64,000 nt of DNA from a virus (taxonomy: Duplodnaviria > Heunggongvirae > Uroviricota > Caudoviricetes): the IMG/VR virus record IMGVR_UViG_3300033066_001908; one strand, 5' to 3'. Position numbers and translations under genes: made by a program. The notes beneath the pieces were generated by a model that saw only the letters and a list, made by a program, of their open reading frames with translations, was not told the DNA's origin and ran no database searches. Of this stretch, positions 1,779-53,190 are shown piece by piece (positions within the stretch are counted from its first letter, which is position 1; each line of letters begins with the position of its first letter).

Positions 1779-2888
1779 TTACAAAACTTTCACGGCACCG
1801 GAGAAGCCTTGCTCTTCGTAAGTCATCAACTCCGGGTGCTCTTTGGTGTATTGTTCGTGGAATGCCTCCCAGGCCTTCCACAGATCTTGTGTTGCCAACA
1901 TGTAGGACATTCGTGGACGTTCCCCTTTAACTTCGTCAAATGAAGCCTCATAGGAGCCGCCCATCTGCCCGCCGATCGATGCCACATGAATCGATTTGCC
2001 ATCAGGACCATCATTAGACACGTCCACGATGCAGTCTGCAAACTTGAACTTCATAAAGCCCTTTGACATGCCGGGCCGCATCTCGATTCGGATCGGTACA
2101 CGCAGCTCGCCCACGATATCGCCGTAGGTTGGACCGCCGTCCGGTTCTTTCGGGACGTTGGCGTGGAACTCGTTATCTGTGCCTTCCTGCCGGCGCTTCT
2201 CGCGGAGTGCTTCACGTTCTGCCTTCTGGCGTTTGCGGCTTAGTTCCTCGGCCGACTCTTCGATCTCCTGCATTAGGATGACATCGTCAATGTCCGGAAC
2301 ATCCTCAACAGGTTCTTCAGGAAGTTCTTCTTCCGGTTCTTCCTCTGGCTCATCGCACCCAAGCATCTTGTTGCGTAAACGTCGATGACTCAGGGAGATC
2401 TCTTCTTGGGCCTCGATCAATGCAGTGAGTTCTGGCGTCTCTTCCGGCGCAGCGGTCATACCAAGCCAGGCCCGGACCTTGACCCAGAACTGCTCATCTG
2501 AATAGTCCCAGGTCACCACGTTCTGCGGATTAGGCGGCTCGTCAGCATCGTCACGTTCGCCAGCCGGCATAGCGTCATAAATGGCGTTCTTATACCAGGA
2601 CTCAGTATGTTTGGACCACAAGACAAACAATGTGCTCGGGCGGTTGTTGATCAGCTTCATCAGCTCGTGTCCGCAACGCTCAGCACCTTGTCCGAAGCCT
2701 ACGCCCAAGCCGCCGAAATCAGTCACCAAGACAGCCGTGCGTTTCATGGTCTCCAGATGGCGTACATCGTGTTCGATGAACTCGCACTCAGCACCGCAGT
2801 TCTTTAGGAATTCGACTTTAACGTCTGCGATTTCCTGCTCTTGGCTTGTCATCATGCTGGCATCGTCCAGCGCAATCGTGATCCGCAT
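1779..2888 (-). CDS. Hypothetical protein with acidic Glu/Pro-rich linker
   Basis: 369-aa ORF. The N-terminal ~150 aa are globular (AVLVTDFGGLGVGFGQGAERCGHE), followed by an EPEEEPEEELPEEPVED linker and a C-terminal domain. Confidence 0.5.
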   Translation of the reverse strand: MRITIALDDASMMTSQEQEIADVKVEFLKNCGAECEFIEHDVRHLETMKRTAVLVTDFGGLGVGFGQGAERCGHELMKLINNRPSTLFVLWSKHTESWYKNAIYDAMPAGERDDADEPPNPQNVVTWDYSDEQFWVKVRAWLGMTAAPEETPELTALIEAQEEISLSHRRLRNKMLGCDEPEEEPEEELPEEPVEDVPDIDDVILMQEIEESAEELSRKRQKAEREALREKRRQEGTDNEFHANVPKEPDGGPTYGDIVGELRVPIRIEMRPGMSKGFMKFKFADCIVDVSNDGPDGKSIHVASIGGQMGGSYEASFDEVKGERPRMSYMLATQDLWKAWEAFHEQYTKEHPELMTYEEQGFSGAVKVL

Positions 2889-2904
2889 AACAGACTCCAG
2901 AAAC

Positions 2905-2930
2905 GAAAAAAGCCAGGCTTTCGCCTGGCT
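2905..2930 (-). terminator. Rho-independent terminator after the Gly-rich protein gene
   Basis: Perfect hairpin AGCCAGGC-TTTC-GCCTGGCT (2911-2930). The plus-strand A5 run at 2906-2910 gives a U-tract on the minus transcript. Confidence 0.55.
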
Positions 2931-2948
2931 TGTTGGTTGAAAGATGAT

Positions 2949-4832
2949 TTAGAACTCACCGCCGCCACCGGAACTACCTTGATCAGACCATTCCGGTTTC
3001 GCTGTTGGTGCCGCACCATTCATGTGACCTGTCAACGCTGGCACGCTCTTGTCGAATGCACCCTGGTACATGTACGGGATCTGTGCCCGCAACGCCTGAA
3101 TGGCCTGCAGCGGGTTCTTATTATAATCGCCAATAAACTTCTGCAGTTGTTCCGGCGATGCGTAATTTGCCAACAGTTGCACATTCTGATCTGGGATCTG
3201 CATCAGCGATTGCTTCATGGCTGCGATGCCTTCAGGCGTCGTAGCCGTTTGAGCGTAGTGCTGAGCCATCGTACCAGCGCCAGCCGGCTGACTATTGACA
3301 ACCGGAATCGAGCCTGGTTGTGCGTTTGGCTTCGGCGCGTTGATCACATCTGACAAAGGCTGTCCTTGGCTTTGAACGCCAAACATACCGCCAATTGCTT
3401 TACCCATTCCGGTATCACCAAACATACCTGCACCAGCCGCAGCCATTGCGCCACCGCCAAGCATTGCCAGCCAGGAACCAATGCCGCCCCCAGTCATGGC
3501 ACTGTACATACCGCCGAGAGCCAGCGTGCCACCGATCAGCAGCGTACCGGCCTCGACAGGATTCGAAGCGGCCCAGTTACCGAGTGCCTGCATCCAGTCG
3601 CCAGGCCCTTTGACCTCGCCGCTTTGAATCAGATGCTGCGCCAACTCTTGGCCGCCTTTACCCTGGAAGAGCTTCTGTGCCGTGTCGGGTGTGATCCCGT
3701 TCTGTTGAATGCTCTGCAGTGTCTGTTGCGCGTCGGCAATCAGTTCATCCAGTGCGACACCCTTTTCAGCTGCTGTAAAAGCGGCCCGTTGCATCAATAC
3801 CGTCTTCGCTGATTGCAGATCCACCGGTTTACCCGATTGGGCCTGTGCCATCAGATCCGCTTCCGCTTTTTCCATATGCGGTTGGAACATTCGGCGCGAT
3901 TCAGGATCCGCCAGCTGCTGGGCCATCTGGGTTGGCTCAGTTGAGTTGACCTGCGGAGTGTAGTTACCAAGCGTACCTTCGATCGAAGCCGGGTCAGCCT
4001 TCATGGCACCGGCTTGATTGCGAAAGTCTTGGTACAGCTTATCCCGTTGAGCTTGAACGGCTTGCCCATAACGACCACCAGAGGCCTGGTTGTCTTGCCA
4101 TTGTGTACGCATTTGGTTGACTTCGTGCATACCCTGATCGAACTGACTCTGCAGATCGTTGAAGTTGTTCACGTTCGGCTGAATCTGTTGCTTAAACGTT
4201 GGACCTCCGGCGCCGAAGGCCTGCTGCCCACGTTGCACAAGGCCGCCGGCGGCCCCACCAAGCGACGGCATACCAACTTGAGTCATCGTCGCACTGGTCA
4301 GTGGTGTGGCCAGAGAACCGCCGAAGCCGCCCCTGAGCCCGCCAGATCGCGCGCCTTGGAAGCCCGAGAGAGCCCCCAGACCGCCTTCCGTGACCGCACC
4401 AGAAATACCGCCTTCCTGATAACCGTGCATCGCACCAAGCCCACCGCCAAGTGCGGCAGATCCGGCCTGCAGACGCCCAGGCGTCACGGTACTTTTCAAA
4501 CCGCCAGCAGCGCGACTGAGCAAACCGGGCGCACCAGCAGCGGCAGAAGGTGCCGCAGTGGGCGCCGCTTTGGCGCCCATGCCAAACAAACTCTTACCGG
4601 CACCCCACAGTTTTGGGCCAACAGCTTTCAATCCTTGGCCCACTGCACCCCAGAAAGCGGTCTTCTGGAACTCCACAAGTTCTTCCCGCACAGCAGGAAA
4701 TGTCGCAGCGGCACGCTTAAGGCAGCCAAATGCCGCTTCATCGTCCAAACCCTGATCCAGACACGCCTGCCCGAATCCGGACAGAAATGGACGTTCGGCA
4801 GCGCACAGACGTTGAACGAAATCGGTAGACAT
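2949..4832 (-). CDS. Gly/Ala/Gln-rich low-complexity protein with glycine-zipper runs; possibly virion-associated or membrane-active
   Basis: 627-aa ORF. It has long GxxxG/GGxGG tracts (GGLGAMHGYQEGGISGAVTEGGLGALSGFQGARSGGLRGGFGG; GGMYSAMTGGGIGSWLAMLGGGAMAAAGAGMFGDTGMGKAIGGMFG) and a Q-rich central region. No catalytic motif was seen. It is followed by a strong terminator. Confidence 0.5.
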   Translation of the reverse strand: MSTDFVQRLCAAERPFLSGFGQACLDQGLDDEAAFGCLKRAAATFPAVREELVEFQKTAFWGAVGQGLKAVGPKLWGAGKSLFGMGAKAAPTAAPSAAAGAPGLLSRAAGGLKSTVTPGRLQAGSAALGGGLGAMHGYQEGGISGAVTEGGLGALSGFQGARSGGLRGGFGGSLATPLTSATMTQVGMPSLGGAAGGLVQRGQQAFGAGGPTFKQQIQPNVNNFNDLQSQFDQGMHEVNQMRTQWQDNQASGGRYGQAVQAQRDKLYQDFRNQAGAMKADPASIEGTLGNYTPQVNSTEPTQMAQQLADPESRRMFQPHMEKAEADLMAQAQSGKPVDLQSAKTVLMQRAAFTAAEKGVALDELIADAQQTLQSIQQNGITPDTAQKLFQGKGGQELAQHLIQSGEVKGPGDWMQALGNWAASNPVEAGTLLIGGTLALGGMYSAMTGGGIGSWLAMLGGGAMAAAGAGMFGDTGMGKAIGGMFGVQSQGQPLSDVINAPKPNAQPGSIPVVNSQPAGAGTMAQHYAQTATTPEGIAAMKQSLMQIPDQNVQLLANYASPEQLQKFIGDYNKNPLQAIQALRAQIPYMYQGAFDKSVPALTGHMNGAAPTAKPEWSDQGSSGGGGEF

Positions 4833-4855
4833 AGTGACCCTCCTGGTCGCGGAGT

Positions 4856-6529
4856 CTACTCATCTATTGCCAGTAGCTGCAAGCCGTTTCGGAGACGAAC
4901 TGCTCGTCGACCGAAGCCAACTGGCAGTGCCGCACGACGTTCCACTGGTGGGAAAATCCGGACACGTCCGGACATTGGCACTTCTGCCTGTGTGAGTTCT
5001 CCGACACCCTGCAGGATTCCTTCCGCGTCAAAACTAACCGTGACAAAGCGGTCGTCTGGATTTCGTGAACTCAAGTAGATCCAGGTCAACGGCTCATCTA
5101 AATTGCCCCAAACCTCACCTATCTGCGGTCCGGTCGGATCCCAGATCACGTGTTCGCGTTCTGGGAACACAGGAAATTCTTCGTGCTCCCCGCCGGCTGA
5201 GGTCACCTGATCATCCGGTAGCGCTCGCTCCCAGGCGGCCACTGTTACCAGTGCGCACACGCACCAACGCGCTTGTTCCCGATAATCGGGATTGACCCCA
5301 AGCAGTCCAAAAGGCACATCATTCGCAATGGTATGTAACAGCGCGCTGGGTATGTCCCGCCGAGAACCATTTTCGTCAATATACGCGCCACGCAAGTCCG
5401 CGTTCTCATCAATAAGCGACCAACGTGTATCAGCAAGTGCTAAGCTCATAGTCAGACTCATTTGATCGGCCGTGATGTCGTAACCGTATCCGGGCTGATT
5501 CTCCGCTGACTGCATATGCGCCTGGATACGTTGCGCGTAATCGATCTGGCCAGCCAGGATGTCCACGTCCATCAGGGAAGTAACCTCCGGCCTTGGTGGA
5601 ATGTCTCCCAGCATCGCGTGCTCGATGACAGTGTGCATCGAGACAAATGTACGTGAACTGTTATCGTGAAACACAGTCAGACTTGGTTCGTTCTGCACAG
5701 CTGTCACGGCGCCGTGGGCAGCTCGACGGCACAAATCAAACGCCGCATACTCCGGCAGCTCCGGAATGTCGCGCATCAATCGTGAAAACGAATTACACAA
5801 GGCCTGCCACAAAATGATACCGATGTGCATGCGGCGGCTCTCAGCGGTAGTGCCTGGCGAGACAACCGCACCGCTATAGATCCGCTGATATTGCTGGGTC
5901 AGTGTGACCAATTCGGAGCGGAAAATTGCAGAGAACCCCGAGTACCGATAACGATCAATGTTTGACATCGGCACAGTGTATGTCATTCCAGGGAATAACT
6001 TTCCGACCACATCGTTCGTGATGATCGTGATTGAATCATGATCGGTGTGATAGATCCGCATGGCTTGCGCCAACAGACACCATGTCGCGTCGGAGAACTG
6101 CTGCTCTGTCACCTCCGGGTTTGGCATATTGTTAGGAAGCACGACGTTTTGCACCGTCTCCATGATCCATCGCTTGTACTCATAAAACAGTTCTGGCGTG
6201 TAAAGGTCTTCACCGGAATTGTTCCGCGAGATCAGGGTGTCGCGAGCGTTCGCCGCGATAGGCTTCAGGGTGCCAACCCAGAAGTCACAAACCGTAGCGG
6301 TTGTCGCTGAATACTGCTGTGCTAATTGCGATGTGTAGTCCGGGATATTGTCAGTCAGGATACCGTCAAACCAACGTGCTGGACGTCGCGGATTCAATTG
6401 AGTGCGGTTCGGATGTTGGCTGCTTGATCGCCCTGTACGAACACCCATGTTGTATGGCGAACGTGATTCATTCAGCTGCGCCCAGGCTCCGTAAATCCTG
6501 TTCCGTACTGTTCTGGTACCATTGGTCAT
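4856..6529 (-). CDS. Hypothetical protein (557 aa)
   Basis: Long clean ORF. The first start overlaps the upstream gene by 62 nt; an internal ATG at 6448 (MGVRTGRSS) would remove the overlap. Confidence 0.5.
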   Translation of the reverse strand: MTNGTRTVRNRIYGAWAQLNESRSPYNMGVRTGRSSSQHPNRTQLNPRRPARWFDGILTDNIPDYTSQLAQQYSATTATVCDFWVGTLKPIAANARDTLISRNNSGEDLYTPELFYEYKRWIMETVQNVVLPNNMPNPEVTEQQFSDATWCLLAQAMRIYHTDHDSITIITNDVVGKLFPGMTYTVPMSNIDRYRYSGFSAIFRSELVTLTQQYQRIYSGAVVSPGTTAESRRMHIGIILWQALCNSFSRLMRDIPELPEYAAFDLCRRAAHGAVTAVQNEPSLTVFHDNSSRTFVSMHTVIEHAMLGDIPPRPEVTSLMDVDILAGQIDYAQRIQAHMQSAENQPGYGYDITADQMSLTMSLALADTRWSLIDENADLRGAYIDENGSRRDIPSALLHTIANDVPFGLLGVNPDYREQARWCVCALVTVAAWERALPDDQVTSAGGEHEEFPVFPEREHVIWDPTGPQIGEVWGNLDEPLTWIYLSSRNPDDRFVTVSFDAEGILQGVGELTQAEVPMSGRVRIFPPVERRAALPVGFGRRAVRLRNGLQLLAIDE

Positions 6530-7517
6530 CTGTTACCTCGTGTTCCTGTTGCCGCAAACGCAACGCCCTCCGGTTGCGTTGAACTGGTGGCGCTTGGGTG
6601 ATTTCGTTTATCGAGCGGATGTTTAACCGGGCCAACTCGGCACCGGGCTGCTCAGGATGTCGGTACACAAGCTCCCACCCATCGTCCAGGATCTTGTTCC
6701 TGAACTCCATTGTGTTGAAACTTTTTGGGTATTCGTCCTGGTAATCGCCGAATTCGACATGATCAGTAGCCCAGAACATGACAACATGCCAGTCATGCGG
6801 ATCCGTCGCGTTACCCCAGACGTCGCTGGGAAGTGGCTTCAACTCCAGCAACTTCGCCTGGTATGGTGTCGGTTCCACGGTGCTTGGCTGCGTACCAGGT
6901 GGAGGGTCATAGAGTAAGCCAGCAAAGCTCACCGCGTGTCCTCCTGTTTGTTCAACTGGTTGTGCTACGTCTGACATCATCTGCGCGCCGCGAACGGCAA
7001 ACTCCAAAGCGTCTTCTTCGTCATAGTCGCGAGGCCGCACGGGCGACTCCCGCTCAGCACGGCGCTGCTCACCGGCAGTCATTGGCCGATCAGGTTCTGG
7101 TCGCCACGGTTCGTTCATGTGCTCGGCCACAAAGACATCTTCCGCGCGACGCGGCTGTGATACAACGACCGGAAAACCAACCAATAGCGCGCTCTGAACC
7201 TCTTCAAAACTGTCCAACTGACGACAGATAGCTCGCGGTGAACGCTCTGTATTCGGACCCCAACTGTTGATTAGATGATGCCCGAGTACCGAGCCGTCTG
7301 TGTTGTGGACCGGAACTGATGTACCAAGAATTTCTCGCGGTACACCCAAACCAGCAGCCAACCGCTGCATGAGACTTTCCTGCATGCTTCGAAAGTCATG
7401 CCGGAGGCGGCGCGCTTCCAGTTGTGGCATTTCGCGAATAGACCGGTCCAGCAGTTCACGACTGAAATAGCCCACGTTGTCTTGAGTAATGCCCGTGTAA
7501 CTCAACGGGTTTGTCAT
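6468..7517 (-). CDS. Hypothetical protein (349 aa)
   Basis: Long ORF in the same orientation as its neighbours. No recognisable motif. Confidence 0.5.
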   Translation of the reverse strand: MTNPLSYTGITQDNVGYFSRELLDRSIREMPQLEARRLRHDFRSMQESLMQRLAAGLGVPREILGTSVPVHNTDGSVLGHHLINSWGPNTERSPRAICRQLDSFEEVQSALLVGFPVVVSQPRRAEDVFVAEHMNEPWRPEPDRPMTAGEQRRAERESPVRPRDYDEEDALEFAVRGAQMMSDVAQPVEQTGGHAVSFAGLLYDPPPGTQPSTVEPTPYQAKLLELKPLPSDVWGNATDPHDWHVVMFWATDHVEFGDYQDEYPKSFNTMEFRNKILDDGWELVYRHPEQPGAELARLNIRSINEITQAPPVQRNRRALRLRQQEHEVTDDQWYQNSTEQDLRSLGAAE

Positions 7518-7525
7518 CGTGTCAC

Positions 7526-7909
7526 CTAAACCGTCTGTAAGTTCTTGCTTCGCAGTTCATCAGCTAGGGTCAACATCGTAGCCATACTGCGATTGTTGTC
7601 GTCCGCCCACGCAATGATCTTCTGTGCCAACCCGACATAAGCATCGCCGGTGTCATAGAAGAAGCGGGTCTCATTGTATTCGGTATCACCTGGAACATCC
7701 ACCAGGAAGCCTGGAATGCCCTCAGCGTATTCGCCCTGGATTGGCAATTCTTCGTTTGCCTTTACCGCTTCAAATCGAAAGTGATCCATCCACTTCCGAA
7801 AACGATCAGTCTGCATGGCGGCTAAACAGGCATCCTTCTGTGTCGGCGCCTCTACATCATTAAACTTCTGTCGAATCTCTGCATAGACATGAACGTTAAA
7901 TAATGCCAT
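7526..7909 (-). CDS. Hypothetical protein (127 aa)
   Basis: ORF tightly packed between neighbours with a 14-nt overlap downstream. Confidence 0.45.
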   Translation of the reverse strand: MALFNVHVYAEIRQKFNDVEAPTQKDACLAAMQTDRFRKWMDHFRFEAVKANEELPIQGEYAEGIPGFLVDVPGDTEYNETRFFYDTGDAYVGLAQKIIAWADDNNRSMATMLTLADELRSKNLQTV

Positions 7910-8327
7910 CAGGAATGTCCTTGATCACGCGACCACCGATAAACAGCAGCCAGCGCATTGGATTGTTACCTAAGAAACTCGGATCAGGTGCGTATGGATC
8001 ATGAATGTAGTCAACCATCCAAGACCCTGATTCGCGGGTACGGCCGATAACGGCATGCTGTACTTCTGGAAACCGTGGACTCTGCCCACTAACAATGCAG
8101 AGCATGTGACTCGGCAATGTGATGCACCCTTCAGTGCCGTCCACTCTGGCGTCGATGTACCAGAGGCCCTGGTCCTTCAGCCACTTGTCCATGTCCTGCG
8201 GGTACGTGTCGAACTTCATCATGAAGTGCGGCACATCCTCTAGTGGCTTCTCCAATAATGAGGCCAGGCAGGCTTGAAAACAATTACCACCCGTAGGTGT
8301 AAAGTCTGTTTGATCAATAAACCACAT
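7896..8327 (-). CDS. Putative papain-like cysteine peptidase (C39-like)
   Basis: N-terminal GGNCFQACLASLL resembles the C39 catalytic Cys region (xCGxACLxM). C-terminal HAVIG...(16 aa)...DP resembles the C39 His...DP arrangement. A GAGGGA SD lies upstream of the ATG. Confidence 0.45.
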   Translation of the reverse strand: MWFIDQTDFTPTGGNCFQACLASLLEKPLEDVPHFMMKFDTYPQDMDKWLKDQGLWYIDARVDGTEGCITLPSHMLCIVSGQSPRFPEVQHAVIGRTRESGSWMVDYIHDPYAPDPSFLGNNPMRWLLFIGGRVIKDIPDGII

Positions 8328-8344
8328 GAGTCCCTCAAAACAAA

Positions 8345-8368
8345 TCGGCCACCAAAAGGTGGCCGATC
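8345..8368 (-). terminator. Stem-loop terminator/attenuator immediately upstream of the peptidase gene
   Basis: Perfect 10-bp stem ATCGGCCACC-AAAA-GGTGGCCGAT. On the minus strand it is followed by TTTGTTTT and then the SD and ATG of 7896..8327. Confidence 0.45.
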
Positions 8369-8608
8369 GTTACGAACGAGTTAGGATCCGAAGGCCACGT
8401 ACGCCCAAGGCATGTGGCTGATCGGCGTCAGGATCATCCGACTGCCCAGGATCACAATGTGCTTAATGCACTAGCGCTGTTCGTGAGTGCTGACGCGAAG
8501 TCAGGCGACTCAAGCGCGTGGGTGAGTGATCAAAGATCAAGTTGGAATCACCAACGCCTCTGTACCAGATGAACCACAGGCCTGCGAGATCGCATTTTCA
8601 GCCGACAA

Positions 8609-9151
8609 TCATTTGTGGTTTTTGTGCGGGCAAACACCGCCGTTAAGACTCCGGCCGCAGTTACAGTTAAAGCACAACAAGGCGAATCCGTCTCGTGGAA
8701 ATCCGTGCTTGCGTAACCACCTGTAGAAATTGCCGTTGATGCTTTTCCGATGTGTCGCACCGCCGCCATTCGTATGATCGATTGTCAGAAACATAGGCGT
8801 GGTTTCACCGCAACATTCACACTTACCGCCATACGCTGCAATGACGGCTTCTTTTAAGCGATCAATTGACTTTCGAGAATTTACATAACAGGTTTCGCAT
8901 TTCGACCCACGGCTCAAAGGCTTGCCACAGTGTCCGCACACGCCGACTTGACGACGTACGGCAGCTTTCTTTCGCCAACGAGTCTTTTGTACCTCACGAC
9001 AATGTGCACACATAACGAAACCATCAGTTGGTACCCTCCCGCACTTACAGAGTCCGGCGGCTTTCCGCGCTGCCGTAAGTTTATTTCGACTTTGGCGCAG
9101 ACTTTCACGTCGATGTTCAGTACGGGTAGTTGCCATAAACGTGTTCCTCAA
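8609..9151 (-). CDS. HNH endonuclease (zinc-ribbon His-Me finger)
   Basis: CGHCGK...CETC...CECCGE...LTIDHTNGGG...N...LLCFNCN. This is an HNH core (DH...N...N) flanked by CxxC pairs. Confidence 0.6.
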   Translation of the reverse strand: MRNTFMATTRTEHRRESLRQSRNKLTAARKAAGLCKCGRVPTDGFVMCAHCREVQKTRWRKKAAVRRQVGVCGHCGKPLSRGSKCETCYVNSRKSIDRLKEAVIAAYGGKCECCGETTPMFLTIDHTNGGGATHRKSINGNFYRWLRKHGFPRDGFALLCFNCNCGRSLNGGVCPHKNHK

Positions 9152-10169: not shown

Positions 10170-10316
10170 TACTCCGGTTTAGAAGAACCAGGGGAAAAAC
10201 GGCGCGAACTTAATGTAAACGCCCACAGCGTGTAAAAGCTTCCAGGTGAGTTTGCAGCACTCCCAGCACTCGCTCTTAAAGAATTCCCAAGTCCATTCTT
10301 GCTCTTCTGGGTACAT
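10170..10316 (-). CDS. Small Trp/Cys/Phe-rich ORF (48 aa), translationally coupled
   Basis: Manual translation gives MYPEEQEWTWEFFKSECWECCKLTWKLLHAVGVYIKFAPFFPWFF. There is a GGAGGA SD. The ATG overlaps the stop of the upstream gene as TAATG. It is below the 60-aa track cutoff. Confidence 0.3.
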
Positions 10317-10678
10317 TATTCCTCCGTGACGTGTCGTCCAGATCGTAGTCGAACAGCCCGATGATGCCGGGTGGAGACCTTTGGCGCAACCTTCTTGTTG
10401 TGCAGGCTCCCAAAGTCATCAAGATATGGAATTTCAAAACTGGCTGCCAGACGACGTCCAGCTTGTTCAGCTTCCTCCTTGGTATTGAACACTTCAGTGG
10501 ACACCTTGGAGTTCTTCCAGATTTCGTGTCCTTTGCCGCCTTTGGTGATGTGTTTAATGAAAATGCTGGCTTTGTACCGCTCAACATCCGGGTTCCCACC
10601 GAAGCCCTTTTTGAATTCACCAACGTGTGCGGCCACGCAGCCCTGCTTCAGTTCTTCAACTGTTGGGTCAGCTGCCAT
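10316..10678 (-). CDS. Hypothetical protein (120 aa)
   Basis: ORF. Its upstream region carries a variant of the conserved AT-rich motif. Confidence 0.45.
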   Translation of the reverse strand: MAADPTVEELKQGCVAAHVGEFKKGFGGNPDVERYKASIFIKHITKGGKGHEIWKNSKVSTEVFNTKEEAEQAGRRLAASFEIPYLDDFGSLHNKKVAPKVSTRHHRAVRLRSGRHVTEE

Positions 10679-10795
10679 GTTGCCCTTTCCACAAATTTAT
10701 TAGAGCCAATAAGATCGGCCTGTTGAGTTTTCTTTTTGGCCCGGCTATCTTCAAGCCGAGCACGAGGCACCATTTTATCATGAATAGGGACGTTC

Positions 10796-11791
10796 ATGCG
10801 CGAAGTTCGCAATATCCCACAGGGACAAGCTGGTCGGCAAATCTATCGACGCAGTGGGCCAATTCGCCGGCATCCTGAGACGGATCTCAAGAGGCCCGCA
10901 ACAGAATTCTTGACCAACGTCATCAACAACACTGTCCGGTTGGACTTGCCACATGGCTGTTTCAATGCCGGTATGGTAGCCGCCAAGGATGGTGACGGCT
11001 TCATTATGGTCTTTCGGCCGAACGAGTTTGCTTTCTCAATCTGTCGTTTGGACAGGAACTACAAGATCATCACGCCACCGTGTGATCTGGGAATCACAAA
11101 CTGTGCGGATCCCCGCTTAATCTGGCTGGCTGATGGCCGTCTGATGATGATCTACTCGTCATACAACGATGATCCACTGGACCCAGTGGAGTGCATGCGC
11201 GGCGCGATCCTGCTGGATCCAGACGTGCATCCCACTTTGTTCCTGGCGCCTGTGCGGGCGTTTCGGATCAGCCCGCCATCGCCGGAGCGGCAGAAAAACT
11301 GGATGCCGTTCCTGTTCGAGGAAAAGCTCCATCTCATCTCCAGCGTGCGTCCGCACACAATCTGGACCTGGGACAAGCCAGGTAAGGTCGCCGACAAGGC
11401 GTACGAAACCGACTACATCTCACCCTGGTTCTGTCCGGAATTCTTCCGCGGCAACACCAATGCGGTCCAGTTGGCTGATGGCAATTATCTTGGCACGTTC
11501 CACACTGTCATGCGGGAACGTGAGATGCACTTTTACGATAACGGTTGTTATGTCTTCGAAGGCAAGCCGCCGTTCAAAGTGTTGCGTTGTTCGCGCCGCT
11601 GCTATTTGCCCGCTGAGGGCGCCTGCGAACCGCACTACCGAAAACAGTATCGCATCACTGTCTGTTTCCCGGTTGGAATGGTCCGTGATGGCGAAAAGCT
11701 GTTGATCTCTTACGGTGACAACGATTCTTCGGTTAAGATCGGCGAGACGACTGTCGAGCAAATGCTTTCAACCACAATGCCAGTTTACTAG
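10796..11791 (+). CDS. GH130-family-like beta-propeller protein (DUF377-like; glycoside phosphorylase/transferase-like)
   Basis: CFNAGMVAAKDGDGFIMVFRPNE, ADPRLIWLADGRLMMIY, RQKNWMPFLFEEKLHLISSVRP and C-terminal ISYGDNDSSVKIGETTVEQM resemble the GH130 fNpg, DPR, KNxxLFPEK and YGAAD blocks. The N-terminal 50 aa are Arg-rich, so the start is uncertain. Confidence 0.45.
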   Translation: MREVRNIPQGQAGRQIYRRSGPIRRHPETDLKRPATEFLTNVINNTVRLDLPHGCFNAGMVAAKDGDGFIMVFRPNEFAFSICRLDRNYKIITPPCDLGITNCADPRLIWLADGRLMMIYSSYNDDPLDPVECMRGAILLDPDVHPTLFLAPVRAFRISPPSPERQKNWMPFLFEEKLHLISSVRPHTIWTWDKPGKVADKAYETDYISPWFCPEFFRGNTNAVQLADGNYLGTFHTVMREREMHFYDNGCYVFEGKPPFKVLRCSRRCYLPAEGACEPHYRKQYRITVCFPVGMVRDGEKLLISYGDNDSSVKIGETTVEQMLSTTMPVY

Positions 11792-11798
11792 GAACGCC

Positions 11799-12347
11799 AT
11801 GCCCGTTTACATGAATGTGAAACCAATCACGTACTATCCGGACAAGGAACTTGTTGCCCGGAAGTTGTTTGAAGGAATCGAATTTACGTCGATCCTGGAT
11901 GTCGGTGCCGGACACGGCGGGGTGTTTGATCTGGATCGTTGGGAGCGTGATCCCAAGGTGACCCGCAAGGAAGCCTGCGACCTCTTCTGGATTCGGACGA
12001 TGCCCGAAGGCTGGATCACCCGGTTGGAAGTCGATGCTTGTGAACTCGACAAGCACTACCAACCGAACTCGTTTGACTTTGTGCAGTGCTGCGAAGTCCT
12101 GGAACACATCCCGGACAACAAGCGGGCACTCGAGCAGCTCGTGAAGGTGGCCAAGAAGGCTGTGTTCATCACCAGCGCAGACGAGATGCACCATATCGGA
12201 CCTGAGCAGGAAGCCATCGAGAAGTTTAACAAGCATCAGGCCTATGTGGGTCAACCGAAGATCAAAGATCTCGAAGACCTTGGCTTCGAAGTCCGTGTGA
12301 CCGACGACGCAATGCGTCAGATTGTCGCCTGGTTGATCAAAAAGTAG
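11799..12347 (+). CDS. Class I SAM-dependent methyltransferase
   Basis: Motif I ILDVGAGHGGVF and post-I/II FDFVQCCEVLEHIPD. Start taken at the ATG after the upstream stop. Confidence 0.55.
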   Translation: MPVYMNVKPITYYPDKELVARKLFEGIEFTSILDVGAGHGGVFDLDRWERDPKVTRKEACDLFWIRTMPEGWITRLEVDACELDKHYQPNSFDFVQCCEVLEHIPDNKRALEQLVKVAKKAVFITSADEMHHIGPEQEAIEKFNKHQAYVGQPKIKDLEDLGFEVRVTDDAMRQIVAWLIKK

Positions 12348-12353
12348 ATCATT

Positions 12354-12941
12354 ATGCGCTGCGTGTATAGAATTATTGAAACTACAACCGGTAAATTTTA
12401 CATCGGTAGTACGGCAAACACCCAAACACGTTGGGCTTGGCATCGTACTACGTTGCACCGGGGCACGCATCACTCGAAACATCTCCAACGGGCTTGGAAC
12501 AAATACGGAGCCGACGCCTTTCGCTTTGAATCTGTTGAAGATTGCACCAACTGCGATGACGCCCAGCTACTGGCTAGAGAACAGGCTTGGTTAGACAAAA
12601 CAGAATGTTGGCGACGGGCGTTTGGTTTTAACATTTCCAAAAGTGCCGATGCGCCATGGCGAGGACGTAAACATTCAACCGAGACACGGGCCAAGATGTC
12701 AAAAACACGACAAGGTCGTGTGGTCTCAGAAGAAACAAAGCGCAAAATTGCCCAAAGTTTGAGTGGACGTAAACGACCAACTGAAGTGGTCGAGAAAATG
12801 CGGGCAAGTCTGCAGGGTCGAAAACTCACAGAAGAACACAAAGCCAACATCGGGCGTAGTGGGTTAGGTCGAGTCGTAACAGAAGCCACAAGAAATAAAA
12901 TTGCGGCTGCACGTCGCGGACAGAAAGCAGTCAATGCCTGA
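12354..12941 (+). CDS. GIY-YIG homing endonuclease with NUMOD3-like repeats (I-TevI-like)
   Basis: N-terminal VYRIIETTTGKFYIGST...R...N.. is the GIY-YIG core. Three HSTETRAKMSKTRQGR / SEETKRKIAQSLSGRK / TEEHKANIGRSGLGR repeats are NUMOD3-like DNA-binding motifs. It sits freestanding between the MTase and GT genes. Confidence 0.75.
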   Translation: MRCVYRIIETTTGKFYIGSTANTQTRWAWHRTTLHRGTHHSKHLQRAWNKYGADAFRFESVEDCTNCDDAQLLAREQAWLDKTECWRRAFGFNISKSADAPWRGRKHSTETRAKMSKTRQGRVVSEETKRKIAQSLSGRKRPTEVVEKMRASLQGRKLTEEHKANIGRSGLGRVVTEATRNKIAAARRGQKAVNA

Positions 12942-13995
12942 TATTTCGTTGCTGATTCACACCGCGTCAACCGACAACTTCATGGCTGGACAAGGAATTC
13001 CGAGCTACTTTGTCGCGTTGATCGAAAACCTTAACCAGCAGAAGCATGACAGCTTCGAGCTGGTCTATACCGATACGTTCCACGAAGAGAATCGTGCCAC
13101 GTTCCACTGGGTCATCAAGACTGCCAAGTTCCCAGTGAAGCATGTCGCGATTCATCGTGAACACCGATACTGGTTCGACCAGGGGTTGTGCTATATCAGC
13201 GCGGCGAAGAATACCGGAATCCTTTACGCGGATGGGGAGCTGTGCATCACTTGTGACGACGCGGAGTTCTTCCCAGACCAGTTGTTCAAACAATACTGGT
13301 GGCACTATAAGAACCAGGGCCGCTACATGCACGCGCTTCACAAGCGGATGAAGCGGATTGATGTCGAGAACAACGTCCCCAAGATGCCGATCTCAGGCGA
13401 CTTCTACGTCAATGACCACAGGTGGGACCGGTTGCATGGTCGTCCGTGCAATGTACACCGCTACGGCACCCTGCTGTTCGCCGGCACGTCCTTCTCTCTG
13501 GAAGATGCCTTGCAGCTCAATGGCTTCAACGAGCGTATGGACGGCTGCAAGGGGCTGGAAGACTGCGATTTCGGCTGTCGGATGCACTGGCTCGGCCGAT
13601 CGTTCGCGGTCGACCGTGACGGCTGGCTGGCTATCGTGGATCATCCGAACTACAGTGACATCGTTGAGACCGGACCTGACGGCCAACAGCACGCGATGCC
13701 ACTTGTGACACGTAAAAAAATCGACAACTTGATTGCCGTGGAAAACCACGGCATGCTGCGGTGCGGTGTTGAGATTCCTGAGCCGCGGGCAAACTGCCAG
13801 CCGCTCGGCAAGGCGCACTGGGACATCATTCAACGAGAGACGTTGAAGTACCGGGGCTTTGATCCACTCGCACCCGAAAACGCCGACAAGTTGGAAATCT
13901 GGAAGCAAACTCCTATGTTCGATCTGCGTAAGCAGCGCGAAGAACTCCGTCACTCTCCTGAATGGGCTGTACTCAATGTCAAACGCTCAACTTGA
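12934..13995 (+). CDS. Putative GT-A fold glycosyltransferase
   Basis: Start taken at MPDISLLIHTAS, which overlaps the GIY-YIG stop. N-terminal ISLLIHTAS and the later GELCITCDDAEF (DxD-like) fit a GT-A nucleotide-sugar transferase. Family unclear. Confidence 0.4.
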   Translation: MPDISLLIHTASTDNFMAGQGIPSYFVALIENLNQQKHDSFELVYTDTFHEENRATFHWVIKTAKFPVKHVAIHREHRYWFDQGLCYISAAKNTGILYADGELCITCDDAEFFPDQLFKQYWWHYKNQGRYMHALHKRMKRIDVENNVPKMPISGDFYVNDHRWDRLHGRPCNVHRYGTLLFAGTSFSLEDALQLNGFNERMDGCKGLEDCDFGCRMHWLGRSFAVDRDGWLAIVDHPNYSDIVETGPDGQQHAMPLVTRKKIDNLIAVENHGMLRCGVEIPEPRANCQPLGKAHWDIIQRETLKYRGFDPLAPENADKLEIWKQTPMFDLRKQREELRHSPEWAVLNVKRST

Positions 13996-14620
13996 AGCAC
14001 TCATGCTCGACGTTCGTCGAGTGTTGCCAACTCTTGAAGGTTGGTGCAAACCGGAAAAGGCAGAAATGCTCTGCAAATTCATCCTGGCTGATCGACCTGA
14101 ACTGGTCGTTGAACTGGGCGTGTTTGGCGGCAGCAGCTTTGTCCCGCAACTGATGGCACTTCGGGTCAACGGCACGGGACACGGCCACGGGATTGACCCG
14201 TGGTCTGTTGATGCCGCCCTGGAGGAAATGAAACTCGATGCCAACAAGGACTGGTGGGGCTCGCTGGACCTGCAGGCAGTCTACAACCGGCTGGTCGACC
14301 ATCTGAACGCCAACGGCTTGGCCTCGTATGCTTCACTCCACCAGGCTAAAGCGGAAGACATGGTCGACAGTTTCGGCGATCAGTCAATTGGCTTGCTGCA
14401 CATCGACGGTAACCACGGAGAAGAGCATTCCTATGCGGATGCCACGCTCTGGTTCCCGAAGGTCAAGGACAATGGCCTGATTTGCTTTGATGATATCTGG
14501 TGGACTGAAGGCGGAACCGATCCAACCACACGCCGGGCACTGCTGTTCTTGTTGGAACGCTGCACCCGGGTGGATTTGGTTGGTGACTGTATGCTGCTGC
14601 GGAAGAATCCCACAGCCTAA
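13976..14620 (+). CDS. Class I SAM-dependent methyltransferase (Methyltransf_24-like, sugar O-MTase-like)
   Basis: LVVELGVFGGSS (motif I) and LLHIDGNHGEEHSYADATLWFPKVKDNGLICFDD match the (F/L)xDGxHxYE..d..pGGvi.fDD pattern of Methyltransf_24. Start taken at the internal ATG (MSNAQLE) at 13976. Confidence 0.6.
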   Translation: MSNAQLEALMLDVRRVLPTLEGWCKPEKAEMLCKFILADRPELVVELGVFGGSSFVPQLMALRVNGTGHGHGIDPWSVDAALEEMKLDANKDWWGSLDLQAVYNRLVDHLNANGLASYASLHQAKAEDMVDSFGDQSIGLLHIDGNHGEEHSYADATLWFPKVKDNGLICFDDIWWTEGGTDPTTRRALLFLLERCTRVDLVGDCMLLRKNPTA

Positions 14621-24908: not shown

Positions 24909-26552
24909 TCAATCCCAGCGATCGATCTTGTAATCGGACACCAGCCCGCGCGCGGTGACACGCACGAACAGGTTCCAGTTGTCACTGCTGCTGCACATGA
25001 TCAGCCCCGCAGCATGGTCTTCCTTGAGGCCTTCCAGGGTATTAGCTCGGGAATAGGACTCAATCACGCTTCGGACGCCGTGGAACTCGTTCCGCAGCAC
25101 TGTGGGGAAGAGACACAGACTCGGACTCCTGGTCTCTTTGGCACCCTTCAGGATGAAGATCGCACGACGGCCCTGGTGTGAGCAATCGTCTTCATTTCGC
25201 CAGGCATACGGACCCAGGCAGATCGCATCAACTTCGACGTAATCACCGCCCCGCAGGGACATCTGGTACGCCGGAGCCCCCGTGGGCCACAGATACCACG
25301 ACACCGGGTTACGGAACTCTTCCGTGTCCCACTGGATAATTGGCGGCGCGGCAGGATCCACAGCAGTCACCAAAGCCCCATAGCAGGAACTGCTGTGAGG
25401 CGCCAGCACTTCGATCTTATCAGCGTTCTCAAGTGCCGTTTGGCGGAACTTGACCCACGTGATCGTCTGTGCAGGCATCTTGATGTCCTGCGGAGTCTGT
25501 GGGGTCACGCGGGCGCCCTTCGGCTTAACATCACCAAACACACCCGTACCGGTCGCCTGGGGCGATTCCCGGCCAGGCCGGGGCACCCAGAGGGCCTGGA
25601 TGTCGGACAGTCGGGCAAACCGCCGCTTGAGCGAACCAGCGGCCCCCAGCTTCTCCACGACGTTTTCCGCCTGCTTGATCGTCCCGGCAGACGGCGCCAC
25701 CTGCGGACGCTGATACTGCAACGGGTGCATCTTCTCCGCAAACCGCTTCGCGATCGCGTTGAAATCCATCCCCGCAAGAATGTCTTCCAACAAGGTGCCG
25801 ATCATCGATGACCGCGGGTGACAGAAGCCGTCCGGAGCCAGCGCGATCGCGTACCAGACCACATTGGCCCTGTGTTTACCGTCCGCAGCTTCATACAGCC
25901 GTTTCAGTTCCAGCAGCCACGTCGCTTGGCCCAGCACCTTCTCACCACAATAGAGCGCGTCCGCTTCCAGGATCTTCACAGCCTGTTCGAGCTGTGGGAT
26001 CGAGAACTCTGACAACGCCAGCATCATGTTCTTGTGGTCTTCCTTCTTGGCCGCCGCGACCTGGAAGGGAGATAGGATTGCGTGTTTGTACATCCGACCA
26101 CCCGTTGCAGGGTACCGAATGGACAGGTGATGCCACGGACCAGTGACTGGCTCGCCGCAGACGTCCTTCTCGGGAACGAACACACCCGTCACCTTGGCCT
26201 TGCGGATTGCAGTGATCAGAGCCTGGACCGGAGCACAAAGTTCAGGCGGCGCGTCTTCCATGTCCCAAAGGACCGGAGAGGCGCATCCTTCATTGTCCAA
26301 AACAACCAAACCCGCAAACCGTTCAATGAACCGGCGGCAGGCATGACAGTTGTGATGTTGTCGTCGATCTTCCGGCAACCAGGACAGGTATTTGCCCCAG
26401 AGATCTTCGACATCAGTCGTGAACATCGGCAGCGTGGCTTGTTCCGTATTGGTCATGAATCGTCGCTGCACATTCGCGAGGTACATGTCGTACTCGCGAT
26501 CACTGCCCACTGCTGCTGCCGGTTGCGCTGGGACTGTTGCTCGTCTCGCCAT
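24909..26552 (-). CDS. Large conserved-looking hypothetical protein (~547 aa from MARRATVPAQ)
   Basis: Long clean ORF with a HHNCHACRRF Cys/His cluster near the N-terminus. No family recognised. Confidence 0.5.
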   Translation of the reverse strand: MARRATVPAQPAAAVGSDREYDMYLANVQRRFMTNTEQATLPMFTTDVEDLWGKYLSWLPEDRRQHHNCHACRRFIERFAGLVVLDNEGCASPVLWDMEDAPPELCAPVQALITAIRKAKVTGVFVPEKDVCGEPVTGPWHHLSIRYPATGGRMYKHAILSPFQVAAAKKEDHKNMMLALSEFSIPQLEQAVKILEADALYCGEKVLGQATWLLELKRLYEAADGKHRANVVWYAIALAPDGFCHPRSSMIGTLLEDILAGMDFNAIAKRFAEKMHPLQYQRPQVAPSAGTIKQAENVVEKLGAAGSLKRRFARLSDIQALWVPRPGRESPQATGTGVFGDVKPKGARVTPQTPQDIKMPAQTITWVKFRQTALENADKIEVLAPHSSSCYGALVTAVDPAAPPIIQWDTEEFRNPVSWYLWPTGAPAYQMSLRGGDYVEVDAICLGPYAWRNEDDCSHQGRRAIFILKGAKETRSPSLCLFPTVLRNEFHGVRSVIESYSRANTLEGLKEDHAAGLIMCSSSDNWNLFVRVTARGLVSDYKIDRWD

Positions 26553-26943
26553 TTTGTTCTTCCTTTTTGGTGTCGGCCGTCTCGGGCCAAGGGATACAAA
26601 CAGGTTCGTGGCGCGGATCTTTGCAGACCAAGCACACAAACACGCGTCCAGTTTGGACGAACTCATTGCCTTCTTCACTACCGATCCAGCTAGTATATCC
26701 GTTCAGTTTCCAACGGAAACCAACGATCCAGCCCTTAAACTGTGGGACGTCCTTCGGACGCCACTCATATTGATGCCGGTTATTCCGCCATCGAGTGCTT
26801 TCGTCTTCACCTTCACGCGGCACATACACACGCTCCATGATCTGCGTGCATTTTACCCACTTGCCCATCACAGCCCGCTGAGCTTCGACACTCAGCGGGG
26901 CTTTCATCTTCTTCCGAATCACGGGAGCCATCAGCAGGTCCAT
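26500..26943 (-). CDS. Hypothetical protein (147 aa)
   Basis: ORF with a CLVCKDPRHEPVC pair. Confidence 0.4.
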   Translation of the reverse strand: MDLLMAPVIRKKMKAPLSVEAQRAVMGKWVKCTQIMERVYVPREGEDESTRWRNNRHQYEWRPKDVPQFKGWIVGFRWKLNGYTSWIGSEEGNEFVQTGRVFVCLVCKDPRHEPVCIPWPETADTKKEEQNGETSNSPSATGSSSGQ

Positions 26944-31582: not shown

Positions 31583-32341
31583 TTACGTCGTTGCTTTAGG
31601 CAAGCTGGCTCGCCAGGCTTCGAAGATCGCGAGATTGGCTTCCATAAACGGCCGGAAGGCTGCCATCGCGGCCTTGGCTTCTTCAGCCGTAATCGTGAAC
31701 TTGCAATCGGGACAACACCAGCCTTCGTAGACAGCAGTGTCATAAACCGTGTCGGATGGATTCAATGCACCACACTTCGGACAGTTGCCATCATGCAGCG
31801 CCCGCACAACCCGATGCAACGCACGCGCCGTATCCGGAGCCAGCGACACGTCACTGTTAAGTGGCACAGGACCAATACCCAGCTCAGAAAAAATCTTCCC
31901 GTCTTCCTCGTCCATGATTTCCTGAATTGGATGCACGTGAGGTTTATGCGGAATCGCCGTGGACTCCAACAACTGCCGATACTTCTCGCCTGTTTCGGCC
32001 CTGAGCCACGGCATCAGTTGTGCGATCTTGTGTGACAGGCAAGTTGTGTTGACGCAGTCCGAAACATACTCGCGCCCACCTTCAGTTCGCACGATCGATC
32101 GCGCGGTACCACACAACAGACATGTCCCGGCCGGCGCCTGGTCAAACTTCGTTGCCAACGCCGAAAGCAACGTCCGATGTGCATCAAACTGCTCGCGAAG
32201 GGTGTCGTAATCCGGACAACGCATGTACTTGTTACACGCTCCATCGCCGTTGGCCCCCACATACCGCACCGGTTTCCCACAACCACAAACGTTGCCGGTC
32301 TGCGTAATGGCTGGCCCCGGTGCCTGAACTGCTTGATTCAT
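31583..32341 (-). CDS. Cys-rich hypothetical protein (252 aa)
   Basis: ORF with many CxxC pairs (CGCGK, CLLCG, CPKCG, CPDCK). Confidence 0.45.
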   Translation of the reverse strand: MNQAVQAPGPAITQTGNVCGCGKPVRYVGANGDGACNKYMRCPDYDTLREQFDAHRTLLSALATKFDQAPAGTCLLCGTARSIVRTEGGREYVSDCVNTTCLSHKIAQLMPWLRAETGEKYRQLLESTAIPHKPHVHPIQEIMDEEDGKIFSELGIGPVPLNSDVSLAPDTARALHRVVRALHDGNCPKCGALNPSDTVYDTAVYEGWCCPDCKFTITAEEAKAAMAAFRPFMEANLAIFEAWRASLPKATT

Positions 32342-32367
32342 TGATTTTCTCCGTTAAACTCGAACAC

Positions 32368-34507: not shown

Positions 34508-34528
34508 TCAAGACTCCAAGGGACTGAC

Positions 34529-50339: not shown

Positions 50340-50340
50340 G

Positions 50341-50385
50341 ATGTGAATCGGATCGCAGGTGAATCGGATCGCAGGTGAATCGCCG
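50341..50385. repeat. Tandem direct repeat, 16-bp unit GTGAATCGGATCGCAG x2 plus a partial third
   Basis: GTGAATCGGATCGCAG GTGAATCGGATCGCAG GTGAATCGCCGAG, located 1 nt upstream of the GTG start of the GT8-like gene. Confidence 0.5.
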
Positions 50386-50459
50386 AGCCACCAGGGCCGA
50401 CGTCAGAGCTGCTTCGAGATGCGGTCGCCCAACAGCGCTGTAAATGATTCCTTGCGACA

Positions 50460-50705
50460 TTAGAACTCCGACTCCTGCACAATTTTGCACTCGTCCATAA
50501 GGGCCTGCGCGTGCGCCATCGTGATCTCATCCGGATTATCGCAGGTCGCCGCCAGCTCACTGACATGCTCGTCTATATCGTTAAGGTCAGTGGCTTCCTT
50601 GAGCCCACACACTGCCTCGACTGCCAGATCCAGAACATCGCAGGCCTGCCAGTAAGCCTCTTTCGCGCGAACTGCATCCTGAAGTGCTTTCAGTACGTCG
50701 TCCAT
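50460..50705 (-). CDS. Small acidic protein (81 aa)
   Basis: ORF. Confidence 0.35.
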   Translation of the reverse strand: MDDVLKALQDAVRAKEAYWQACDVLDLAVEAVCGLKEATDLNDIDEHVSELAATCDNPDEITMAHAQALMDECKIVQESEF

Positions 50706-50718
50706 CAGTCACCTCAAC

Positions 50719-51039: not shown

Positions 51040-51047
51040 AGGGCACC

Positions 51048-53179: not shown

Positions 53180-53190
53180 GTTGCTTCTTT

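Follow-up and report, generated by a model that had tools for sequence, protein, structure and literature searches.

What does a phage gain from a compact set of sugar-handling genes read against the direction of most of its other genes, and how did it come by them? The question is raised by a stretch of 64,000 nucleotides from an uncultured tailed phage (Caudoviricetes; IMG/VR record IMGVR_UViG_3300033066_001908), hereafter the window, in which five genes, g1 to g5, stand closely packed on the plus strand at 10796-14620. The window belongs to a metagenomic contig of 83,989 bp, of which an 83,870-bp version was also recovered from a second source. A first-pass annotation, made from the sequence without database searches, had taken the whole island for a horizontally acquired, moron-like cassette. 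Our analysis leads to another view: the block is probably a native operon that has long resided in a lineage of uncultured phages and whose soluble, cytoplasmic products build a glycan, with virion proteins as the favored acceptor. Its one recent arrival is g3, which encodes a homing endonuclease.

Results

A conserved gene trio

The first gene of the block, g1 (10796-11791, 331 amino acids), encodes a predicted cytoplasmic five-bladed beta-propeller of the GH130/GT108 fold, expected either to transfer a beta-mannosyl-type sugar or to work as a phosphorylase. It is followed by g2 (11799-12347, 182 amino acids), a small class I S-adenosylmethionine (SAM) methyltransferase; g3 (12354-12941, 195 amino acids), a free-standing GIY-YIG homing endonuclease with three NUMOD3 repeats; g4 (12934-13995, 353 amino acids), a divergent GT-A (GT2-like) glycosyltransferase; and g5 (13976-14620, 214 amino acids), a SAM methyltransferase of the Methyltransf_24 family (PF13578). 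Successive genes are separated by 7, 6, -8 and -20 nucleotides, and the 3' end of the block overlaps a convergent gene by 4 nucleotides. Pfam matches, AlphaFold2 models and Foldseek searches bore out all five identities proposed in the first-pass annotation, including the GH130 and GT-A assignments. No signal peptide or transmembrane segment was predicted in any of the five products.

Three of these genes, g1, g4 and g5, form a trio that recurs well beyond the window. They lie in this order on one strand in 16 of the 16 compared loci that carry all three, on contigs of 20-546 kb with a GC content of 29-61%, and g4 identity is 53-68% throughout. Homologs of g1 and g4 were found on the same contigs, and g5 always lies immediately 3' of g4. 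The three genes have correlated between-locus distances (Mantel r = 0.44-0.76, p ≤ 0.004), g4 and g5 giving r = 0.76 and p = 0.0005. Natural fusions also occur. A 900-residue protein (P0361) joins a 234-residue N-terminal domain to g1 and g4, a 542-residue protein (P0364) joins a 200-residue N-terminal domain to g4, and three proteins of 538-564 residues (P0175, P0365, P0368) join g4 to g5; the extra N-terminal domains of P0361 and P0364 gave no Pfam match. We regard the fusions as strong evidence that g1, g4 and g5 act together. In a profile search of 1.84 billion representative proteins the g4 family proved to be tight, with about 19 clusters above 200 bits, P0361 and the three g4-g5 fusions among them, and g4 is the signature gene of the module.

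The interval between g1 and g4 is a variable slot. It may be empty, or it may hold g2, a protein related to hydroxyproline O-arabinosyltransferases, or a GT2 glycosyltransferase together with a sugar-nucleotide epimerase; in the compared loci all slot contents are glycan-tailoring enzymes. Present in L006, L012, L015/16, L017 and L018 and absent from L004/5, L010 and L022-27, g2 is an optional tailoring enzyme of this slot, and the window copy is 86% identical to that of L006. The arabinosyltransferase-like protein is found in two low-GC phage contigs (L019, 5093-5953; L028, 5082-5954) as a product of 286-290 amino acids matching PF23452 at 30.7 bits, against a cutoff of 23.9. Hydroxyproline O-arabinosyltransferases are plant-type protein O-glycosyltransferases, so this family match hints that the module may act on proteins.

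The trio is not described in the literature found by our search and has no match among GenBank phages. Neither g1 nor g4 gave a tblastn match in 50,697 GenBank phage records, and the block plus 25 kb of the window gave no DNA match to GenBank phages in near or distant search modes. Among 185,579 species-representative reference genomes, the trio was present on two contigs only, both phage-like: a 123-kb contig with phage-type genes, labeled Aquaspirillum (L012), and one whose proteins are identical to those of a 546-kb jumbo-phage contig (L010). In IMG/VR, 11 loci were recovered through a family alignment and none through single-sequence scans with g1 and g4.

Enzymes of the operon

The product of g1 matches Pfam Glyco_hydro_130 (PF04041) at 37 bits, above the curated cutoff of 26, and most of its homologs carry a precomputed match to the same family. 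For its AlphaFold2 model (predicted local distance difference test score 92.2) the top 42 Foldseek matches in the PDB are all GH130 or GT108 enzymes, with E values down to 7e-11 and template-modeling scores of about 0.6. The GH130 call thus held under both the profile search and the fold comparison. Structures of Leishmania MTP enzymes, of GT108 (6q4z, 6q4x, 6q4w and 6q50), matched with E = 4e-8 to 5e-7, more weakly than the GH130 structures. Sequence identity to the GH130 enzymes among the PDB matches is 11-18%.

Across 51 sequences of the g1 family, N57, R74, D105-P-R107, H236 and D310 are invariant. In HMMER alignments to 4onz and 5ayd, the counterparts of N57, R74, D105 and D310 lie in the motifs FN, YR, EDPR and CAD. 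Characterized GH130 enzymes use a proton-donor Asp (D104 in UhgbMP), an Asn in the -1 subsite, and Arg and Asp contacts; a phosphate-binding Arg/His pair marks the phosphorylases of the family and a Glu pair the hydrolases (PMC7660257, PMC4599007). In the sequence alignment, H236 falls on the His of the RaMP2 YHG motif, a phosphate-binding residue. Some GH130 enzymes are mannosyltransferases as well as phosphorylases (PMC12814180). When the g1 model was compared with predicted viral structures, the best matches were multidomain proteins of uncultured phages and giant viruses, and several of these g1-like proteins carry glycan-synthesis annotations (LicD/FKTN, fucosyltransferase, pyruvyl transferase).

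The glycosyltransferase encoded by g4 is divergent: it reaches 13.2 bits with Pfam Glycos_transf_2 (GT2), below the cutoff of 23.3, and PF00535 is found in a minority of its homologs. Its AlphaFold2 model (score 94.6 on the same scale) displays a GT-A fold with an extra C-terminal helical domain. The best PDB match in Foldseek is TarP (E = 5.6e-10), followed by K4CP, ppGalNAc-T2 and SpsA, with RmlT also in a range extending to 1e-7. A DDAE motif of the DXD type is invariant at D108, D109 and E111 in 49 sequences; the family profile matches the GT2 structure 5hea (E = 0.0019), with DDAE aligned to DSDD. As for the methyltransferases, g5 matches PF13578 at 71.1 bits (cutoff 26.3), contains the motifs ELGVFGGSS and HIDGNH, and has weak sequence similarity to SAM-dependent O-methyltransferases in the PDB. 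The product of g2 matches Methyltransf_11 at 29.7 bits and Methyltransf_23 at 28.9 bits, both above cutoff.

Composition and position of the block

A recently acquired cassette should stand out from its surroundings, and the first-pass annotation had proposed a comparison of GC skew and codon usage with the flanks. We took as reference 45 minus-strand genes that encode at least 150 amino acids. By this measure g1, g2, g4 and g5 are native-like, with synonymous codon usage at z = +0.6 to +1.2 and a GC content at third codon positions (GC3) of 0.645-0.70, against 0.639±0.049 in the reference; g3 alone is atypical. The dinucleotide signature of the island lies 0.028 from that of the genome, closer than the mean for windows of the same size (0.035). 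Third-position GC skew on the coding strand is +0.11 in the reference genes and -0.02 to -0.11 in the island genes. At its near-neutral sites the island has thus taken on the skew of the genome strand, not that of the coding strand, as expected after long residence in the present orientation.

Homolog look-ups placed the block at the same site in four related contigs. Its neighbors are kept in L004, L006 and L014/L016: on the left the ortholog of a 120-residue protein gene (10316-10678), on the right the orthologs of the genes just past 14620. Identity to the relatives is 31-57% for the flanking proteins and 57-86% for the island proteins. The block exists in three states: g1-g4-g5 (L004/L005), g1-g2-g4, in part followed by g5 (L006, L015/L016, L017), and g1-g2-g3-g4-g5, seen in the window only. 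No direct repeats flank the island; a repeat search returned the NUMOD3 repeats and chance pairs. Typical composition, equilibrated skew and shared neighbors in four relatives all speak against the idea that the whole island is a moron-like cassette. The GH130 assignment made along with it stands.

The homing endonuclease gene

The two hallmarks of a moron, absence from the site in relatives and atypical composition, coincide in g3 only. Its codon usage lies at z = -4.4, its GC3 of 0.415 is lower than that of all 45 reference genes, and its dinucleotide signature falls in the 97th percentile for windows of equal size. Relatives lacking just this gene were indeed found: g2 and g4 are separated by 0-6 nucleotides in L006, L015/L016 and L017 and by -1 nucleotide in L012, and no homolog of g3 was detected in any other compared locus. 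In the window, the interval between g2 and g4 measures 586 nucleotides, made up of a 6-nucleotide spacer and the g3 reading frame, whose last 8 nucleotides overlap g4. The first-pass annotation was right about an overlap between endonuclease and glycosyltransferase genes; it is the stop codon of g3, not its start codon, that overlaps the g4 start, at ATGCCTGA (8 nucleotides). We conclude that g3 is a separate, recent insertion of a free-standing homing endonuclease gene into the g2-g4 spacer, and the proposal that the endonuclease is an invader is upheld. An insertion so precise, with the stop codon overlapping the next start, would have left the operon intact.

The protein itself matches Pfam GIY-YIG (PF01541) at 34.9 bits, carries three NUMOD3 repeats, and belongs with phrog_314 (E = 3.7e-38). 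Aligned to the I-TevI catalytic domain (1mk0/1ln0; E = 3e-8), its residues Y5, Y16, R26, H30, H40, E76 and N93 pair with residues of I-TevI, and no catalytic residue is missing. It ends after the third NUMOD3 repeat, at 195 amino acids, without the C-terminal helix-turn-helix of I-TevI. Comparison with SegE gave no match (E = 0.063), and the nearest database homolog is 43% identical. No Rfam intron was found between 9500 and 16000.

The upstream region

A divergent intergenic region of 117 nucleotides (10679-10795) separates g1 from the gene for the 120-residue protein and is conserved more than that protein. It is about 70% identical among the window, L004 (9881-10000), L006 (3213-3320) and L016 (2023-2143), against 32-45% for the adjacent protein, and contains the invariant runs GCCAATA and GTTGAGTTTT. 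Within it, at 10697..10712, lies the near-palindrome TTATTAGAGCCAATAA, one of several instances of a motif found throughout the genome. With as many as 3 mismatches permitted, the window has 8 occurrences of TTATTGGNNCCAATAA where 1.2 are expected, and none of 100 shuffles reached 8. The copies, 16 nucleotides long, AT-rich and of the type TTATTAG-N3-CAATAA, lie at 10697, 24135, 38440, 46133, 56771, 49662, 3121 and 20926, mostly between genes; in two copies on the minus strand a hairpin and a T-run follow directly. The motif may be a phage promoter or operator element.

On the plus strand at 10723..10751, directed toward g1, a candidate sigma-70-like promoter can be read as TTGAGT, a 17-nucleotide spacer and TATCTT. 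The run GTTGAGTTTT is invariant there, and TATC and the next T are conserved in the four relatives. The candidate fits 8 of 12 consensus positions, which is below the scan threshold; it is its conservation alone that suggests a promoter of the operon. The systematic scan found sigma-70 promoters and terminators less often than chance would predict, with no site at either end of the operon and hence no terminator at its 3' end. Rfam and tRNA scans of the region and the window returned nothing. Another explanation for the conservation was rejected, namely a small open reading frame, which is interrupted in L004 and whose substitution pattern is not codon-like; a structured RNA leader is not supported either, the fold of the region being unremarkable (z = -1.0). 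The upstream elements would tie the operon into the genome's own regulatory pattern.

Other genes of the window

Contrary to what had been supposed, the genome is not purely minus-strand outside the island, although the block does run against most genes. A Gly_transf_sug (DXD) glycosyltransferase gene at 34421-35308 is on the plus strand, as is its L004 ortholog, and an open reading frame at 32320-33579 is probably so too; both have native codon usage. The plus-strand genes with an assigned function, endonuclease aside, all encode glycan enzymes. The partial minus-strand gene at 1-882 had been suspected of sharing the theme of the island, and rightly so: it encodes the N-terminal 294 residues of a 1319-residue soluble glycosyltransferase with three domains (GT4, GT4, GT2), which is 75% identical to its L004 ortholog and lies outside the operon. 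No transmembrane segment or signal peptide was predicted in this protein or in the window's other GT2.

Further glycan genes of the window encode a Mannosyl_trans3-like and a TOD1/MUCI70-like protein, a 470-residue Methyltransf_24 fusion, a PhyH oxygenase, a polysaccharide deacetylase, a sulfotransferase and the other GT2 just named. Most of these genes make up a second glycan cluster, at 49662-56251 on the minus strand. In L004, four orthologs (5279-8998) lie directly beside the island, from which the window cluster is some 35-40 kb away; the genomes have therefore been rearranged.

In the 64 kb, Pfam, PHROGs and ARAGORN recognized no gene for a terminase, portal, capsid protein, DNA polymerase or tRNA, and the large open reading frames at 1779-7517 match no family. 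Genes for structure and replication have either diverged strongly or lie in the remaining 20 kb of the contig. The strongest link of the genome to cultured phages is a 589-residue protein (24909-26678, minus strand) matching phrog_1735 (E = 8.5e-94). Its relatives, all annotated as hypothetical, are encoded in 533 GenBank phage records that cover many hosts; its best match, at 42% identity, is in Rhizobium phages.

Gene calling in the island deserves a comment. Three minus-strand shadow reading frames of 166-251 codons (11733-12488, 12470-12970 and 13393-13953) lie over g2-g4 and were rejected on homology and codon statistics. For the first two the codon statistics are poor, and their apparent conservation merely mirrors that of the real genes beneath them. 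Simple calling by longest reading frame or codon score prefers a shadow frame over g2 and g3.

We also looked at the surroundings of the trio elsewhere. Neighborhood clustering for a conserved acceptor protein recovered only the trio and g2. A 2H-SAK gene lies a few kilobases from the trio in L007 (12158-12572), L012 (16659-17816) and L031 (15749-16321), sometimes beside a PAS-domain gene, an association that spans three otherwise different phage contigs, this one included. The public contig L010/L011 (GCA_003352295.1, 546 kb), from a "Crenarchaeota" bin, carries a T4 gp13-like gene, Acb1 and a gene for an intein-containing protein; L030 (CALFYV010000090.1, 546 kb) has g1, g4 and g5 proteins identical to those of L010; and in L012/L029 (CAZWRK010000001.1, 123 kb) Cpn10 and 2H-SAK are found in L012. 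Coming from bins labeled Crenarchaeota archaeon, Bacteriovoracaceae and Aquaspirillum, these contigs look like phage and appear to be mis-binned.

Discussion

How might the operon work? One could envision a pathway that runs wholly in the cytoplasm. The g4 protein would transfer a sugar from a nucleotide-sugar donor by means of its DXD metal site. The g1 protein would then add a beta-mannosyl-type residue, from mannose-1-phosphate or from GDP-mannose as some GH130 and GT108 enzymes do, or might instead trim one, and g5 and g2 would O-methylate the product. The most likely product of the four native genes would be a methylated sugar chain.

By analogy with other viruses, we favor proteins of the phage itself, and of its virion, as acceptor. 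The enzymes stay similar across phages whose hosts must differ, which is why an acceptor carried by the phage is preferred, and there are precedents in mycobacteriophages (PMC11600133) and in giant viruses (PMC4691112). It is tempting to go further and to propose, as a tentative idea that could well prove wrong, that the trio is a phage-specific glycosylation system in which a GH130-fold synthetic (mannosyl-type) transferase, a GT-A glycosyltransferase and an O-methyltransferase place a conserved methylated glycan on phage-encoded capsid or tail proteins, the swappable slot serving to diversify it. The system would then be a bacterial-virus counterpart of the autonomous glycosylation of giant viruses.

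A number of observations weigh against a glycan-building operon that serves the virion. The Pfam GH130 match is limited to the C-terminal third of g1 (residues 221-325). The sequence gave no placement for the phosphate-binding Arg, for which R165, K167 and R218 are the invariant basic candidates, and g1 could be hydrolytic. The residue before the catalytic D105 is a nearly invariant Ala, which fits none of the characterized GH130 linkage-specificity classes (Y/R, E/K, E/R; PMC7660257) and makes even mannose uncertain as the sugar of g1. PHROGs labels the Methyltransf_24 family "DNA methyltransferase". The link to virions is by analogy, since no structural gene was recognized in the window, and the phage nature of the window itself is deduced from PHROG matches, gene architecture and relatives, not from hallmark genes. 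Finally, the higher conservation of the island relative to its flanks could mean recombinational exchange between relatives rather than constraint alone.

The main rival holds that the operon and the other glycan genes jointly remodel a glycan of the host envelope (lipopolysaccharide O-antigen, capsule or an exopolysaccharide precursor) at the inner membrane face, blocking superinfection or the adsorption of progeny to debris. This is the role usually proposed for sets of phage glycosyltransferases (PMC12801897; PMC12619734). It gains from the fact that the PDB structure closest to g4 belongs to TarP, a prophage-encoded glycosyltransferase of wall teichoic acid, and from the match of one window GT2 to a GtrB-like PHROG, and the sulfotransferase and deacetylase would suit polysaccharide tailoring. 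However, that GT2 lacks the transmembrane helices of GtrB. The window showed no flippase, polymerase or ligase and no polytopic membrane protein of the GtrA/GtrC type, and none of its proteins is predicted to have more than two hydrophobic segments. Moreover, identity of the trio remains at 53-68% in genomes of 29-61% GC; the envelopes of their hosts probably differ greatly, and an acceptor borne by the phage fits this better. We therefore regard envelope remodeling as rather unlikely.

That the whole five-gene block is a recent, moron-like acquisition is improbable and, for the recent time scale, largely refuted. Its orientation and the mobile endonuclease within it do invite the idea, and the presence of the trio in unrelated phage backgrounds implies movement between lineages at some time. 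The evidence against it is of several kinds: g1, g2, g4 and g5 lie within the range of the genome in codon usage, GC3 and dinucleotide signature and have an equilibrated skew, the left and right neighbors are the same in four relatives even though the flanks are down to 31-57% identity, and the upstream region has the genome's own recurrent motif. Because g1, g4 and g5 occur together in very different phage backgrounds, the trio is a mobile module over long evolutionary time; in the recent history of this lineage it is not.

There is slightly less still to be said for g1 as a catabolic mannoside phosphorylase or hydrolase, an auxiliary metabolic gene acting on host or environmental mannosides beside functionally unrelated neighbors. 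The Pfam match and all the top PDB matches of g1 are to catabolic GH130 enzymes, and a cyanophage gene has been annotated in this way (PMC12801897); by tblastn, that "MGP" gene is not detectably of the g1 family, if the phage is in the GenBank set. Yet g1 is invariably collinear with g4 and g5, is fused to g4 in P0361, and has distances that co-vary with those of both. Its identity to GH130 enzymes is low, the Ala before its catalytic Asp is unlike any known class (PMC7660257), and the viral structures that match it are domains within larger biosynthetic proteins of several domains. Least probable of all, and very unlikely in our judgment, is hypermodification of the phage DNA with methylated sugars as an evasion of restriction: phage glycosyltransferases do glycosylate DNA, to go by work cited in PMC12619734, and the PHROGs label and a Lar restriction-alleviation domain in the window are in keeping with it, but the Pfam matches of the 78 window proteins include no hydroxymethylase, thymidylate-synthase-like or other base-modification gene (the 20 kb of contig beyond the window being only partly seen), and the neighboring sulfotransferase, deacetylase and sugar-nucleotide epimerase or aminotransferase genes suggest glycan rather than base chemistry.

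Virion glycosylation affects immune recognition and possibly host range; to our knowledge, few experimentally supported cases exist in phages, chiefly in mycobacteriophages. With the trio there is a defined and portable target for finding out how widespread self-glycosylation is in uncultured and jumbo phages. Its apparent restriction to phage-like contigs, its variable slot and its natural fusions entitle it to attention, and the slot illustrates modular glycan diversification in nature. Viral GH130-fold proteins, usually annotated as catabolic "auxiliary metabolic genes", may be biosynthetic, which, if true, would change how virome genes are read. Several public bins labeled archaeal or bacterial carry the module on phage-like contigs. 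As for g3, its insertion is an ordinary but unusually clean and datable example of intronless homing into an operon.

The endonuclease finds its closest parallels in the Seg proteins of T-even phages and in I-TevI. With these it shares the GIY-YIG catalytic domain, which we aligned to that of I-TevI, and the NUMOD3 DNA-binding repeats, as well as insertion between conserved genes that are left undisrupted, presence or absence among relatives, and foreign composition. I-TevI differs in being intron-encoded and in possessing a C-terminal helix-turn-helix, g3 being free-standing and 195 residues long.

With GH130 phosphorylases, GH130 mannosyltransferase-phosphorylases and GT108 enzymes, g1 shares the five-bladed propeller and the conserved Asn of FN, the Arg, the Asp of D-P-R and the C-terminal Asp (PMC7660257, PMC4599007, PMC12814180). 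Like the GH130 phosphorylases, it is predicted to be cytoplasmic and to lack a signal peptide. It departs from these enzymes at the linkage-specificity site, where they have Tyr or Glu and g1 has Ala, and in context, polysaccharide-utilization loci for them and a biosynthetic setting for g1. A parallel for the operon as a whole is found in the mycobacterial cluster for methylmannose polysaccharide, a methylated mannose polymer, which comprises MeT1, MmpH, pMeT3 and ManT (PMC9883506). There too, four genes for cytoplasmic products combine one glycosyltransferase, two methyltransferases and one enzyme of a glycan-cleaving family. The families are others, however (ManT is a GT-B enzyme of GT4, and MmpH is not GH130), and the cluster is on a bacterial chromosome, so that the analogy is one of logic only.

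Among phages, the nearest counterparts are the virion glycosylation operons of cluster O and F mycobacteriophages, which, in the account of Freeman et al. (2023) given in PMC11600133, consist of an O-methyltransferase gene followed by tandem glycosyltransferase genes and put glycans on phage proteins. As described there, these operons resemble the block in encoding soluble, cytoplasmic glycosyltransferases and an O-methyltransferase of the phage's own, in a small operon away from the structural genes. In that account no GH130-fold enzyme is reported; tblastn of g1 and g4 against the 50,697 GenBank phage records revealed no sequence relationship between the two systems, and the acceptor is only predicted in ours.

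Giant viruses offer the broadest comparison, the chlorovirus protein A064R being one of their glycosylation proteins. Chloroviruses and mimivirus glycosylate autonomously by means of multidomain proteins that combine glycosyltransferases and methyltransferases (PMC4691112). They are viruses of eukaryotes, the likeness to them is structural only, at 12-20% identity, and in our phage the activities mostly reside in separate genes of fixed order. Nevertheless, proteins of Pithovirus, Indivirus, Solivirus and Satyrvirus are among the structural matches of g1, three of them with glycan-synthesis domains. Giant viruses and the window alike encode soluble, multidomain glycosyltransferases and sugar methyltransferases of their own, independent of the host in the giant viruses, and the 1319-residue, three-domain glycosyltransferase of the window is of just this kind.

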